Shown: positions 29,153 to 31,752, counted from the stretch's first letter. The stretch: DNA of 64,000 nt from Candidatus Nomurabacteria bacterium RIFCSPHIGHO2_01_FULL_37_25 (GCA_001786765.1 MFTH01000015.1:1548-65547); one strand, 5' to 3'. Program-made: numbers and translations. The notes: a model not told the origin generated them from the letters alone.

Positions 29153-29167
29153 AAGTTATCCACATGT

Positions 29168-29198
29168 GAGCAAGTTTTATCCTTGCTTTTATTTTTTA
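29168..29198 (+). terminator. rho-independent terminator (gagcaag..cttgc + TTTTATTTTTT)
   Basis: Stem 29170-29174/29182-29186 followed by a T-run; 16 nt after the TrpR-like stop. Confidence 0.6.
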
Positions 29199-29206
29199 TA
29201 TATACT

Positions 29207-29222
29207 AGCATACTAGTATGCT
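29207..29222 (+). promoter_or_regulatory. second ACTAGT-centred palindrome AGCATACTAGTATGCT
   Basis: Perfect 16-bp palindrome sharing the core CATACTAGTATG with the one at 28832-28853. Confidence 0.4.
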
Positions 29223-29385
29223 GATAATAAGAAAGTTAAAGATTAATAAAGTATATAAAGTATGCGAAGTATGTAAAATCAGAAAATCTTGGTGGGGCGC
29301 AGAGCTTGATGCTTTTGCGCTGTTCTGTTGATTTCTTCAGTCCCTAGAACCTAACCTAGGCACTAACCTATAAGGAATCCATTAA

Positions 29386-29415
29386 GTGGCGCAACGAAGC
29401 GCCACTATTTTGTTC
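29386..29415 (+). terminator. rho-independent terminator (gtggcgc aacgaa gcgccac + tattttgttcttt)
   Basis: 7-bp GC stem, 6-nt loop, T-rich tail; ends a roughly 150-nt structured non-coding stretch. Confidence 0.55.
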
Positions 29416-29509
29416 TTTGGGTCTTTTATATACCCGGAAAGGAGGATGTATGTTGTGGGATATAGAAGAATGGTTTATTTAGGGTCGTAGCGATAGATAG
29501 ACTACGACC

Positions 29510-29553
29510 CTGAGATTGTGGCGATCGTTTCTTAAAGAAACGGTCGCCAATTT
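29510..29553 (+). terminator. rho-independent terminator (ggcgatcgtttctt..aagaaacggtcgcc + tttttatttttt)
   Basis: 14-bp stem with one G.U pair, then a long T-tract; preceded by a second hairpin at 29472-29500. Confidence 0.55.
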
Positions 29554-29837
29554 TTATTTTTTTAATAAAATATGAAGAATTAAGTAGAAAGTTTATGAAA
29601 ATAATTATCCACAGAGGGGTATTTACATTTATTTTAAATATGCTAGATTGTGAACGTGAATAAAAAATTACAAGCAAATAAGATTTTCTTTTTCAACTAC
29701 TTTAGTAAAACTAGAGAGCTGATATTTGCGCTGTAAAAACTAACTAAAACAAACTTACAACTTAAATACCGGCTCTCTAGTGAGAACCGGTATTTTCGTA
29801 ATAGAGCGGAAATAAAAAGTTCTTTGGAGGATATAGT

Positions 29838-29996
29838 ATGAGGCACATAAAATGCATCAAAAAGCTGGGTCAGCACCGGGAGGTTGTAAGGGAAGGAACG
29901 AGAAAGTATCCAATATTTATATGTTGGGTGTGTGGTAAGGCCGGCTGGGGTTGTGCTAATCGCCTCTCGGCGCAACTTTGTAATAAGAAAAAGTGA
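29838..29996 (+). CDS. small Cys-rich peptide (52 aa)
   Basis: Strong SD GGAGG 9 nt upstream; MRHIKCIKK...CWVCGKAGWGCANRLSAQLCNKKK; followed by a strong terminator; below the ORF-track size cutoff. Confidence 0.35.
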   Translation: MRHIKCIKKLGQHREVVREGTRKYPIFICWVCGKAGWGCANRLSAQLCNKKK

Positions 29997-30004
29997 CCGC
30001 ATCC

Positions 30005-30046
30005 GGCGACTGCTCTCACAAAAGAGCAGTCGCCTAAGTTTTTATT
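30005..30046 (+). terminator. rho-independent terminator (ggcgactgctct cacaa agagcagtcgcc + TTTTTATTTT)
   Basis: 12-bp perfect stem followed by a T-tract, 9 nt after the small ORF stop. Confidence 0.7.
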
Positions 30047-30054
30047 TTCGTTCT

Positions 30055-30175
30055 TTGATAAATTAATAAATTATCTTCAAAACAGTGGTTATAGCCAAAA
30101 GGTACTGATCATTCGGTATTTTCTGGCTATGACTACTGTGGTTATAGTAATTTACTCAAAAAAGGGAGGTGGGAA
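30055..30175 (+). ncRNA. repeated structured leader, copy 1 (candidate cis-regulatory RNA)
   Basis: About 100 nt roughly 85% identical to 30463-30565, with internal hairpin atagccaaaag...ttttctggctat; ends in GGGAGGTGGG just before the ATG. Confidence 0.35.
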
Positions 30176-30178
30176 ATA

Positions 30179-30319
30179 ATGCCTGAATTTTTTTGTTTCG
30201 ATCACCTAGAGTTCAAAGTATCGGTAAGGGTTTTTCTTTGTAAACGGTGCGGAACCGTTTACTTAGAAAAACCCTCCGTCGGGACTAAGTGTAAGGTCCC
30301 GACGGAAAAAAAAATTTGA
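30179..30319 (+). CDS. small zinc-ribbon-like peptide (46 aa)
   Basis: SD GGGAGGTGGG; MPEFFCFDH...CKRCG...C; the C-terminal region is encoded by a Family C3 hairpin. Confidence 0.35.
   Translation: MPEFFCFDHLEFKVSVRVFLCKRCGTVYLEKPSVGTKCKVPTEKKI
30272..30305 (+). repeat. Family C3 hairpin (ccgtcgggact...ggtcccgacgg)
   Basis: Same gtcggga/tcccgac stem as in recR and the ATPase 2 tail. Confidence 0.6.
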
Positions 30320-30462
30320 GGGGGTCCTAATAAACCCCTCATGAGAGCCGAGCGAGACTAAAAGATCGCTTGGCTTTTATAATTTTAAATATTGTACTTA
30401 TTTATTCTTACGGGATATAAAAAAACTTTGAATTTACAAGCACAGTCGCCAAAATTTTTTTT

Positions 30463-30565
30463 GTTCTTTTAAAATTGATAAATTACTTACAAAAACAGTA
30501 GTCGTAGCCAAAAGATCCTGATTATTCGGTATTTTCTGGCTATGACTATTGTGGTACATAGCCCC
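30463..30565 (+). ncRNA. repeated structured leader, copy 2
   Basis: Homologous to 30055-30175; ends with CCCCACCTC (reverse complement of copy 1's GGGAGGTGGG) about 50 nt before the ORF 30616. Confidence 0.35.
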
Positions 30566-30615
30566 ACCTCGGATAGAGGAAAAAATAAAAATTTAACCTA
30601 ATAGGGGGGTATAAA

Positions 30616-31080
30616 ATGGCAAGTTATGTTATTAAAATAGGTCGTTTTAAAAAAGAGTGTCCAGATTTTTTAAAACGATTACACCACCCACTGGTTGAGA
30701 TGTTCAGACCTCAAAGCTATAACCTTTTTGAGGAGGTGGAGCCATGGCTCCATGAAGAACAAAAGAAGAAAGATGCAAGCGTACCTGGAAAAGTTATATA
30801 TCATAATATAACTAAAGAGGAGTTCAGCCTTGCGTCCCAGTTGAGTTTTATGGATGGTTTGGAAATCATCAAGATCGTGGGGAGAGATCTGATGATTTTT
30901 CGAGAGATTTTTGGCTCCAACACAACACTTACCCTTTGGGGGTCAAAAGGGGAGGACTACTTAGGGTACCCTTGCGTACCAGTCCTAAGAGAGGAAAAAG
31001 GAGGTTTGGTAATTAAGCCAAAATACCTAAATTCTTTTTGGACCAAAGAGTGTCCTGGACTTAGGTTCAACAAGAAGTAA
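30616..31080 (+). CDS. hypothetical protein
   Basis: 154 aa; preceded by leader copy 2; no motif recognised. Confidence 0.4.
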   Translation: MASYVIKIGRFKKECPDFLKRLHHPLVEMFRPQSYNLFEEVEPWLHEEQKKKDASVPGKVIYHNITKEEFSLASQLSFMDGLEIIKIVGRDLMIFREIFGSNTTLTLWGSKGEDYLGYPCVPVLREEKGGLVIKPKYLNSFWTKECPGLRFNKK

Positions 31081-31218
31081 AATATCTCACAATAAGCGGG
31101 CTAATCGGAATATTCCGACGCCCGCTTTAACTTTTTATGGGAGAAAAAAGTTGCCAACATTTTTTAGTATTTGTGCTAAAATAAATGCATGCAAATAAAT
31201 ATAAATAAAGAAGACAAT

Positions 31219-31359
31219 ATGAACGATTATGATGATTGTGAGGTTTGTAAGCTTATGAAAAAAGGTGACCATAACTATGGAGATTTAGCAGAAGCTTTTG
31301 CCAAACAAAATGCAAAGAATAAATTAAATGAAGAAATATCAAGAGAAAATAAAGAATAA
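31219..31359 (+). CDS. possible small peptide (46 aa, CxxC)
   Basis: MNDYDDCEVCKLMKKGDHNYG...; overlaps the start of the rhuM fragment in another frame; weak. Confidence 0.2.
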   Translation: MNDYDDCEVCKLMKKGDHNYGDLAEAFAKQNAKNKLNEEISRENKE

Positions 31360-31618
31360 TATTGTAATTTATCAAACACCAAGTGGTTCTATTGAATTTC
31401 GAGGTGATTTTGAAAAAGAAACTATGTGGGCAAACTTAAATCAAATTGCTCAAGTTTTTGGCGTACAAAAAGCTACTATTTCTAAACACTTAAAAAATAT
31501 ATATGAAACTGAAGAATTAACTAAAAACGCAACTGTTTCCAAAATGGAAACAGTTCAAGTTGAGGGTAATCGTTCAGTTAGTCGTTTGATTGCGTTAGTT
31601 ACTCAGCTCTTAAAATAA
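31328..31618 (+). pseudogene. RhuM-family protein, N-terminal fragment (truncated)
   Basis: IVIYQTPSGSIEFRGDFEKETMWANLNQIAQVFGVQKATISKHLKNIYETEEL...VEGNRSV matches the RhuM N-terminal domain; full-length members are about 330 aa, this one ends at 96 aa. Confidence 0.5.
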
Positions 31619-31752
31619 AATGGTTCAAGAGCAGGCGTTGAATATTTAAAAACAAGGGCGAATGTTTTTTTGACTGACGAGACTAGAGAAAAATAGGCTT
31701 GTAAAATAACTATTTTTTATTTTTTATTTATGCTAAAATATTTTCAATACTT

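Follow-up and report, generated by a model that had tools for sequence, protein, structure and literature searches.

Two putative leader-peptide attenuators, one Trp-type and one Phe-type, between trpS and aspS in a Nomurabacteria genome

The trpS-aspS gap of Candidatus Nomurabacteria bacterium RIFCSPHIGHO2_01_FULL_37_25 holds, within about 2.5 kb (29160-31700), a close succession of hairpins and small open reading frames (ORFs). It lies in a 64,000-nt window (GCA_001786765.1 MFTH01000015.1:1548-65547), from whose first base all coordinates are counted; features are on the + strand unless stated otherwise. Here, we propose that this stretch is probably made up of small transcription units placed one after another, most prominent among them two conserved attenuators of transcription that act through the ribosome and a leader peptide, one Trp-type (element A, 29205-29419) and one Phe-type (element B, 29622-29799). 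Both elements are conserved among relatives, their leader ORFs remain intact, their arms are able to pair, with some covariation, and in other genomes the codon run of the leader agrees with the downstream gene. From these patterns we infer the stalling mechanism, the binding of a repressor, the start codons used and the function of p52, the 52-amino-acid (aa) protein encoded behind element B. Relatives were collected by a TrpS-anchored scan with one genome per species, which gave 58 loci, mostly from Candidatus Nomurabacteria or Paceibacterota; individual loci are given L numbers.

A Trp-type leader behind a TrpR-family gene

The gene preceding the stretch (28868-29152) encodes a 94-aa TrpR-family repressor, which matches PF01371 (Trp_repressor; E 3.7e-16, 59 bits against a cut-off of 27) and scores 45.7 bits with TIGR01321 (TrpR; below the cut-off of 67) and 21 bits with YerC/YecD. 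The protein was also matched on contig MFUR01000010.1 (GCA_001785715.1) and on near-identical metagenome contigs, and a trpR-like gene follows trpS in about 25 related loci. Two palindromes flank the gene. They share an 18-nt core with a CTAG centre, which occurs exactly twice in the window (28834-28851 and 29206-29223; 0.01 expected) and contains GTACTAGT, a sequence that we take to be present in the Escherichia coli trp operator. The first, O1 (28828-28857, AAATATCAGCGTACT/AGTATGCTGATATTT), stands just upstream of the trpR-like gene and is a putative TrpR operator for autoregulation; the second candidate TrpR box, O2 (29205-29230), overlaps the promoter and the start codon of leader A. Across loci the O2 variant follows the TrpR class, with ..CATACTAGTATG.. 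accompanying the 94-97-aa class and ..ATG[TC]ACTAGT[GA]CAT.. the 98-aa class. The window has a second TrpR-related gene, of the YerC/YecD type (35848-36246, - strand; TIGR02531, 64 bits), with a palindrome of its own, AAAGTACTTT, within 36260-36310 between a TTGACT -35 and a TAAAGT -10.

Nucleotide comparison of the gap shows 29276-29419 to be conserved in many relatives, where it follows the trpR-like gene. The parts of element A come in an invariable order: the stop codon of trpR, AGTTATCCACA, a promoter that the palindrome overlaps, a short ORF (..KSW[W/R]GA...AFALFC, stop), GATTTCTT, a variable loop, AAGGAATCCATTAAGTGGCGCA and a terminator. In the window, leader ORF A has 37 codons (29218-29331; MLII...KSWWGAELDAFALFC, stop), with tandem Trp codons at 29290-29295 and a TGA stop inside region 2. 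It is intact in all 27 distinct full copies that we assembled (WW in 21, WR in 6), and its stop is the TGA of TTGATTTCT in 20 of them. The first base of hairpin 1:2 (GGCGCAGAGC / GCTTTTGCGCT, 29296-29321) directly follows the second Trp codon; 87.8% of cells are paired, compared with 34-63% in slid controls, and three pairs are changed on both sides. The antiterminator 2:3 (29315-29337 with 29372-29394) has 23-nt arms and encloses the variable loop, with 83.5% of cells paired (39-53% when slid) and four pairs changed on both sides. The terminator 3:4 (AGTGGCGC..GCGCCACT; stem 29385-29406, T-rich tail to 29419) is conserved in relatives, and region 3 overlaps its 5' arm, so that antiterminator and terminator have this arm in common.

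In the mechanism that we propose, a TrpR-family repressor would shut the leader A promoter when Trp is present. The transcript would encode a peptide with two Trp codons directly before hairpin 1:2. A ribosome stalled at these codons would leave region 2 free to form the 23-bp antiterminator with region 3, and RNA polymerase would read on; a ribosome reaching the TGA inside region 2 would allow terminator 3:4 to form. The genes found downstream of A in some relatives encode TrpE (L046, TIGR00564, 540 bits, above cut-off; L006) or TrpB and TrpA (L012, TrpB TIGR00263, 573 bits; L041), and there the unit would drive trpE or trpB. Elsewhere it is followed by phosphoribosyl pyrophosphate (PRPP) synthetase (L018) or by small Cys-rich ORFs. 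A search with nhmmer and profiles of A and B gave no further copies within the 64-kb window.

Behind element A the window carries a species-specific unit (29440-29562) made up of an AGGAGG Shine-Dalgarno (SD) sequence, a 10-codon ORF (MLWDIEEWFI, stop; 29451-29483), a hairpin (29483-29510) and a strong terminator (29519-29549) with a T-run. No nucleotide match to this unit was found in relatives by gap comparison; L012 carries MWWPWFWWI, stop, where the window has MLWDIEEWFI. The unit may be either a degenerate cargo slot or a second Trp-containing upstream ORF. A conserved motif of approximately 60 nt (AAGTTTGTGAAAACTTT..ATTCTCAGGTGAAGGAATCTACC..TAAGTGATTT) stands after the A terminator in L020 (about 11620-11690), L022, L052, L056 and L010, where it precedes small ORFs that mostly start with MW; it is absent from the window.

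The Phe-type leader, its family and its downstream genes

Element B was seen in the same gap comparison, in which 29622-29780 is conserved in eight loci upstream of different ORFs. Scanning metagenomes with an exact 20-base core gave at least 119 contigs, and at least 116 copies after duplicates and two chance matches were removed. A consensus scan places the predicted B promoter (TTTACA-16-TGcTAGATT) at 29622-29649, ending 6 nt before the GTG of the leader. In 92 of 111 copies a TAnnnT box lies no more than 16 nt ahead of the leader start, most commonly at 6 nt, and since this -10-like box is mostly so close to the start codon, the leader ORF is suggested to be leaderless or nearly so. In the window, leader ORF B (29656-29736; MNKKLQANKIFFFNYFSKTRELIFAL, stop) starts with GTG and has 26 codons, including a Phe run FFF at 29686-29694.

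Among the matches listed, 112 of 116 copies retain an ORF that opens at a conserved GTG or ATG (the peptide beginning MNKNIQ..), and the other two frames from the same start are open in only 2 and 6. The leader ends at one of two stops in different frames, a TAA at core+16 (..RRLIFAL) or, in about a quarter of copies, a TGA at core+2 (..LEG). The C-terminal peptide therefore differs between the stop classes and the nucleotides do not, which indicates that the 3' part is maintained for its role as RNA and the run, in its reading frame, for translation. By automatic count among the matches listed, the runs are of F in 55, I in 13, L in 12, V in 3 and mixed in 24 copies; the peptides as read also include a few Tyr pairs or Cys-rich runs and several mixed Ile/Leu/Val runs. 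In frame 0, 93 of 112 copies contain at least three identical residues within a 5-residue window and 50 contain at least four; the other two frames give 58 and 36 copies for the first threshold and 12 and 3 for the second. The runs are whole-codon repeats of differing composition (CTC.., ATT.., GTC.., TTC..), not one nucleotide tract.

The antiterminator of B is a 27-nt helix (29710-29736 with 29755-29781) whose 5' arm consists of the last nine leader codons. It has 80.1% of cells paired, compared with 30-44% in slid controls, and 59 double-change cells, a number reached by none of 500 shuffles. Conserved A·C mismatches fall at exactly the two positions where region 2 (GGCUGAUAUUUG) and region 4 (GGCUGGUGUUUG) differ. 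The terminator (29764-29799; 14-bp stem 29764-29777 / 29782-29795, then TTTT) has its 5' arm inside the antiterminator 3' arm, and a terminator starting inside region 3 is found by a strict test in 98 of 112 copies, most of the failures being shorter GC-rich stems with a U-run. For region 1, a first candidate pairing (GCAAAUA:UAUUUGC) was 75% paired and was dropped, as it had no covariation support; a second (U[UC]AGCC:GGCUGA) is 82% paired, compared with 14-46%, and is likewise without covariation. The logic of element B would be that of element A, with the Phe run FFF in place of the Trp codons. A ribosome reaching the leader stop would remove the antiterminator, the 5' arm of which is the end of the ORF, and the overlapping terminator would form; stalling at the Phe codons would leave the antiterminator intact, and transcription would enter p52.

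Because both elements end in terminators they would yield discrete RNAs of approximately 120-145 nt, and together with the very high nucleotide conservation of their cores this raises the alternative that A and B are translation-independent structured RNAs (riboswitches, protein-binding leaders or stand-alone small RNAs) in which the short ORFs are incidental. Copies without a trp gene, such as A in the window, could then act in trans in the manner of rnTrpL, the attenuator RNA of Sinorhizobium meliloti, which is reported to act in trans (PMC7968998). We consider this alternative unlikely, given that, indels notwithstanding, all 27 A copies and 112 of the 116 B copies preserve the ORF with the other frames almost always closed, that the runs are codon repeats of different composition, that run type tracks the function of the downstream gene and that no Rfam family matches.

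Alternatively, the products of the B-type ORFs could be small hydrophobic peptides with a function of their own, such as membrane peptides resembling type I toxins, and not sensors: they are 20-35 aa long, and their centre, with its F, L, I or V runs, is hydrophobic. However, the hydrophobic stretch spans 3-8 residues between charged flanks, which is too short for a membrane helix; the use of the second stop in about a quarter of copies means that the C-terminus is not conserved as a peptide; and no antisense RNA or antitoxin partner is evident. This makes the peptide explanation very improbable.

The codon run can be compared with the gene that follows the leader. Phe leaders precede a prephenate dehydratase (L094; PF00800, E 9e-20) and class IV aminotransferases (Aminotran_4 in L122 and L173; L077 read from a cut N-terminus). 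A Leu leader in L069 is followed by a second, different Leu-rich leader and then 2-isopropylmalate synthase (LeuA; NF002991, 759 bits), a Val leader in L144 by ValS (NF004349, 851 bits) and an Ile leader in L072 by a protein with a LeuA_dimer domain (Pfam). Across these cases the codon run fits the first sizeable downstream gene that can be named, and no named gene contradicts it, although these are examples and not a statistical census. Most genes downstream of B encode unnamed proteins of 30-130 aa. The second leader of L069 (+94 past the B core, before leuA) belongs to a third leader-like ORF family of 31-34 aa (M..KFN..LGLLLLTQKYLRLLNAFVDS) that also follows Leu-type B leaders in L084, L130, L131 and L168, and the L069 arrangement looks like tandem Leu attenuators. 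Another recurrent family downstream of B consists of small proteins with the motif ..LTVP..LPCGC[KR]R.., which are often G+C-rich and have no Pfam match (L009, L079, L082, L086, L091, L097, L108, L132, L157 and L160).

In the window the gene behind element B is p52 (29838-29996), a 52-aa ORF with five Cys residues and a GGAGG SD at 29826-29830, as the initial annotation had described it, closed by a terminator at 30005-30034 (12-bp stem, 8 GC pairs). A homologue search yielded six distinct family members with 33-42% identity, all directly behind Phe-type B leaders; a search of 5.8 billion proteins with a family profile turned up only five, nearly all of which the loci had already supplied. Across six members G11, H13, V16, G20, F27, C29, C32, N41, L43, S44 and C48 are invariant, and the protein has 13 basic and 2 acidic residues by count. 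AlphaFold (AF2) with a six-sequence alignment gave a small beta-rich fold with a predicted local distance difference test (pLDDT) score of 76.6, for which Foldseek found no match at E<1 in the PDB; the best hits had E of 1.2 or more, and several of the top ones were zinc-ribbon proteins. We regard p52 as a genuine small protein of narrow distribution, which probably binds zinc and may also bind nucleic acid.

A number of points weigh against reading A and B as attenuators. Six of the 27 A leaders have a single Trp codon at the WW position, and in the window no trp gene follows element A. The exact-core collection makes the B core invariant by construction, and covariation is visible only outside it. 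The GTG of leader B would lie at or next to the predicted 5' end of the transcript, the B terminator stem of the window is followed by only four T, and both candidates for B region 1 are without covariation. With 240 bits, the class IV aminotransferase downstream of Phe leaders falls just under the NCBIfam IlvE equivalog cut-off of 279, and IlvE is primarily a branched-chain enzyme. The genes downstream of A and B are mostly small proteins without assigned function, and the amino-acid logic is for this reason not checkable for p52 itself. Finally, the stalling mechanism would operate only if transcription and translation are coupled in bacteria of the Candidate Phyla Radiation (CPR).

With these points included, we still regard the two attenuators as the probable reading of the locus. 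A wider proposal, which we put forward tentatively, is that CPR bacteria of the Nomurabacteria type possess a large attenuator family built on one RNA scaffold, in which a change of codon run (to Phe, Leu, Ile, Val, Tyr or perhaps Cys) re-set the specificity of each copy. A related Trp version would be controlled by TrpR, and most copies would drive small basic Cys-rich proteins and not biosynthetic enzymes. Such a family would give organisms mostly unable to make amino acids a regulon of small proteins that responds to amino-acid starvation. Leaders that lack a cognate downstream gene, element A of the window among them, might act in trans, as small RNAs or peptides.

Some further sequence features accompany element B. 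In several copies (for example, L015, L077, L083, L092, L101, L123, L174 and L175) the terminator is followed by an SD-like segment, ..TAGAGGGGGTGG.., whose sequence complements the 3' part of region 3 and which may add control at the level of translation in those copies. Of 107 copies checked, 37 have the motif T[AT]TCCACA, which in 29 of these lies 40-44 nt upstream of the leader start. TTATCCACA occurs exactly four times in the window (299-307, 29156-29164 and 29605-29613 on the + strand, 36300-36308 on the - strand), always intergenic and just upstream of a promoter -35; we take it to be the DnaA-box consensus, and it could be a site for DnaA or another factor.

The remainder of the trpS-aspS gap

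Related loci share the order dnaB (- strand), trpS, a variable gap, a class-II Asp-type tRNA ligase gene and ribF. The contents of the gap differ among them, in agreement with the accessory nature that the initial annotation gave this stretch. Whether trpS directly precedes aspS has a divided answer: in 12 of the approximately 58 loci a class-II Asp-type ligase gene lies at most 60 nt after trpS, but the ligase there is only 30-51% identical to AspS of the window, and where the ligase is orthologous (67-84% identical) the gap measures 0.6-3.6 kb and differs in gene content. The best explanation, and as part of the joint reading with two attenuators a probable one, is a rearrangement-prone slot filled with short self-terminated transcription units, in which the D1 hairpins with p46 and the 154-aa ORF (p154), the 56-aa ORF (p56), the RhuM piece and the helicase remnant described below are best explained as lineage-specific additions or decay products.

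Every ORF and hairpin of the initial annotation is present at the position given there, and six terminator-like hairpins were located on the + strand (29385-29406, 29519-29549, 29764-29795, 30005-30034, 30348-30380 and 31094-31127), where it had counted at least five. They are, as had been supposed, atypical of the window: a consensus scan found 12 terminator-like sites in 26000-35000 (5.7 +/- 2.7 in shuffles), and in a separate scan 5 of 22 window-wide sites fell in the 2.7-kb bin holding the stretch, every other bin having at most two. The same holds for strong SD sequences, as 46 of the 58 large ORFs have no upstream SD-like core of 4 nt or more and only 5 have a 5-nt core; cores of 5-7 nt precede the 10-codon ORF at 29451, p52 and p46. 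A simpler reading of these SDs is that they serve genes behind long 5' leaders in a genome that rarely uses SD, and the leader interpretation explains why strong SDs appear only here. An octamer, GTTCTTTG (or GTTCGTTG), is found just past terminator T-runs at 29413-29420, 29818-29825 and 30050-30057 of the window, and also across the A and B families in many loci.

The initial annotation had read the stretch as a cassette gained by horizontal transfer and coding for small peptides that are secreted, regulatory or toxin-like and that each have strong expression signals of their own, and part of this survives: there is an accessory slot whose content varies among relatives, with trpS abutting the next synthetase gene in 12 loci, a RhuM-type piece matching a candidate defence family, a pair of near-ORFans (p46 and p154) and a helicase remnant pointing to past insertions. 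However, A, B and the p52 family are conserved in the same slot across many Nomurabacteria. The two best clusters of terminators and SDs belong to these conserved leaders, and since A and B keep the same locus in many relatives they are not foreign DNA. The G+C content (0.33-0.38) equals that of the flanks, the ORF and repeat listings show no integrase, transposase or flanking direct repeats in the stretch, and neither the B core nor the D1 hairpin occurs in the viral contigs searched. Searches of Pfam, NCBIfam, PHROGs and PADLOC returned nothing significant for p52, p46, p154 and p56, the RhuM piece alone matching PADLOC. The suggestion of toxin-like or secreted peptides falls away, as the small ORFs match no toxin, defence or secretion family and none has an N-terminal hydrophobic segment, as read from the sequences. 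A foreign cassette is hence improbable.

Repeat D1 is present in two copies (30027-30142 and 30443-30555), 83% identical over 117 nt. Each contains a 26-bp hairpin, in copy 1 (30082-30139) ahead of the p46 SD and in copy 2 (30495-30552) ahead of p154, with + strand folding energies of -36.6 (z -9.6) and -32.8 kcal/mol, respectively, compared with approximately -21.5 on the - strand (-21.6 for copy 1); the four differences between their stems all leave pairing intact by way of G-U. No copy of D1 was found outside this species, in related loci or in other searches. The 3' arm of the copy 1 hairpin holds the ATG of a 16-codon upstream ORF, MTTVVIVIYSKKGGGK (30128-30181), the TAA of which overlaps the p46 ATG (TAATG); the counterpart in copy 2 reads MTIVVHSPTS.. 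We considered D1 as a further attenuator and left this as an idea, there being no terminator between MTTVVIVIYSKKGGGK and p46 and no run in copy 2.

The 46-aa ORF p46 (30179-30319), with its SD GGGAGGTG at 30164-30171 and a terminator at 30348-30380, is where it had been annotated, but it is doubtful as a protein. Its body consists of three strong hairpins (30228-30274, 30275-30306 and 30317-30341; fold -68.5 kcal/mol, z -8.7), and no homologue came to light in 181 loci. p154 (ORF 30616-31080, also as annotated, with a terminator at 31094-31127) has protein database matches only in the same species, and one homologue (36% identical, E 3e-13) at another locus in L038, which makes it probably a real gene; a single-sequence AF2 model reached a pLDDT of 34 and was unusable. 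Next come a promoter-like box (TGTGCTAAAAT) and the CxxC ORF p56 (31160-31359; ORF 31189-31359), for which a 72%-identical homologue exists in L151. The possible 46-aa CxxC peptide of the initial annotation is the shorter form of this ORF, from the ATG at 31219, and not a separate gene. Repeat D7, at the promoter-like box, resembles the aspS promoter.

The end of p56 is overlapped by a 96-aa ORF (31328-31618) that corresponds to the truncated RhuM-family gene noted earlier. Its residues 9-90 are 39-47% identical to the N-terminus of annotated RhuM-family proteins (tblastn, E 2e-14), and it matches the PADLOC candidate system PDC-S05 (E 7e-27). It gave no match to the Pfam RhuM family (PF13310, Virulence_RhuM) even at E<=1, and hence only the N-terminal part (about 85 residues) is present; a full-length RhuM protein would have about 300 aa or more and the core domain, whereas this ORF ends at approximately 96 residues. 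In L151 the sequences flanking it (31160-31348 and 31608-31681) are adjacent and otherwise collinear without the RhuM piece, which for this reason looks like an inserted fragment. A helicase remnant (31626-31676) with in-frame stops resembles the 5' end of a PIF1-like helicase gene, with 83% identity over 52 nt to L012 16078-16129, an ORF assigned to PIF1 by PF05970 (E 3.9e-33). This is a nucleotide match only, as the BLASTP comparison is too short to score.

Beyond the stretch, the 5' leader of aspS (31753-31820) contains a 15-bp helix (GTCCCGTTAGAAAAT / ATTTTCTAATGGGAT) pairing up to the first two bases of the aspS start codon. The helix is conserved in seven loci with two covarying pairs, has no Rfam match, is also found before a PRPP-synthetase-like gene in L165 and could be a translational operator. 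A G+C island (51% over 1 kb at 35001-36000; genome approximately 35%) contains a 202-aa ORF (35143-35751, - strand) with no NCBIfam match. Approximately 8 kb upstream of the stretch, a 516-aa ORF (19431-20981; L001 564-2114) has weak precomputed Pfam matches to the type IV secretion system coupling-protein families T4SS-DNA_transf, TrwB and TraG-D_C.

Comparison with known systems

Attenuation by leader peptides is textbook knowledge, most of it from proteobacteria, with a few cases in other cultivated phyla. In a full-text search, which covered few subscription journals, we found no paper linking leader peptides or attenuation to CPR, Patescibacteria or Parcubacteria. No Rfam family reaches its gathering score in the whole window, and at E<=10 the region 28700-32000 contains no leader family, only chance-level matches such as snoR104, BTnc060 and microRNAs.

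The geometry of element A is that of the classical E. coli trpL attenuator. As in the E. coli trp system (TrpR plus trpL; Trp_leader, RF00513), a TrpR-family repressor is paired with a CTAG-centred palindromic candidate operator at the promoter, a short leader ORF has tandem Trp codons just before region 1, four segments allow 1:2, a 2:3 antiterminator and a 3:4 terminator, and trpE is the first gene downstream in L046 and L006. Unlike in E. coli, the repressor gene lies immediately upstream of the leader, the leader ORF has 22-50 codons and begins inside or next to the operator, its stop codon is inside region 2, the antiterminator is a 23-bp long-range helix, and many copies drive small Cys-rich proteins or, as in the window, no trp gene; the RF00513 covariance model does not match.

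A second parallel is trpRBA of Chlamydia trachomatis, in which trpR is reported to be directly followed by an intergenic regulatory region, with an alternative promoter and a YtgR operator, and by trpBA (PMC7755916). The same succession of trpR, intergenic regulatory region and trpBA is found in L012 and L041. In contrast, the intergenic region here is a conserved Trp-codon leader with a terminator, and the window lacks trpBA.

Element B shares with the enterobacterial pheA/pheST (Phe_leader, RF01859), leu, ilv and thr leaders a run of end-product codons in a short ORF, a mutually exclusive antiterminator and terminator and, in some copies, a position before cognate biosynthetic or tRNA-ligase genes (prephenate dehydratase, LeuA, ValS). 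It differs in that one scaffold and one MNKNIQ.. start are common to Phe, Leu, Ile, Val and Tyr runs, whereas in proteobacteria each operon has an unrelated leader. In further contrast to the enterobacterial leaders, the downstream genes mostly encode 30-130-aa proteins without assigned function, the start is usually GTG approximately 6 nt after a -10-like box, and there is no Rfam match.

The combination of one scaffold with interchangeable codon runs, downstream genes that mostly encode small proteins and sensors in organisms of very limited biosynthesis is unusual. If the attenuator reading holds, these ultra-small, host-dependent bacteria use translation to gauge the availability of single amino acids, and the family provides natural variants of one scaffold that differ in codon run, in which the determinants of specificity are directly testable. 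Dozens of small protein families, including p52, would then be switched on when a particular amino acid runs short, which would provide a first functional handle on small ORFs that cannot otherwise be annotated. The closest functional counterparts are TrpR with trpL of E. coli for element A and the pheA and pheST leaders for element B.

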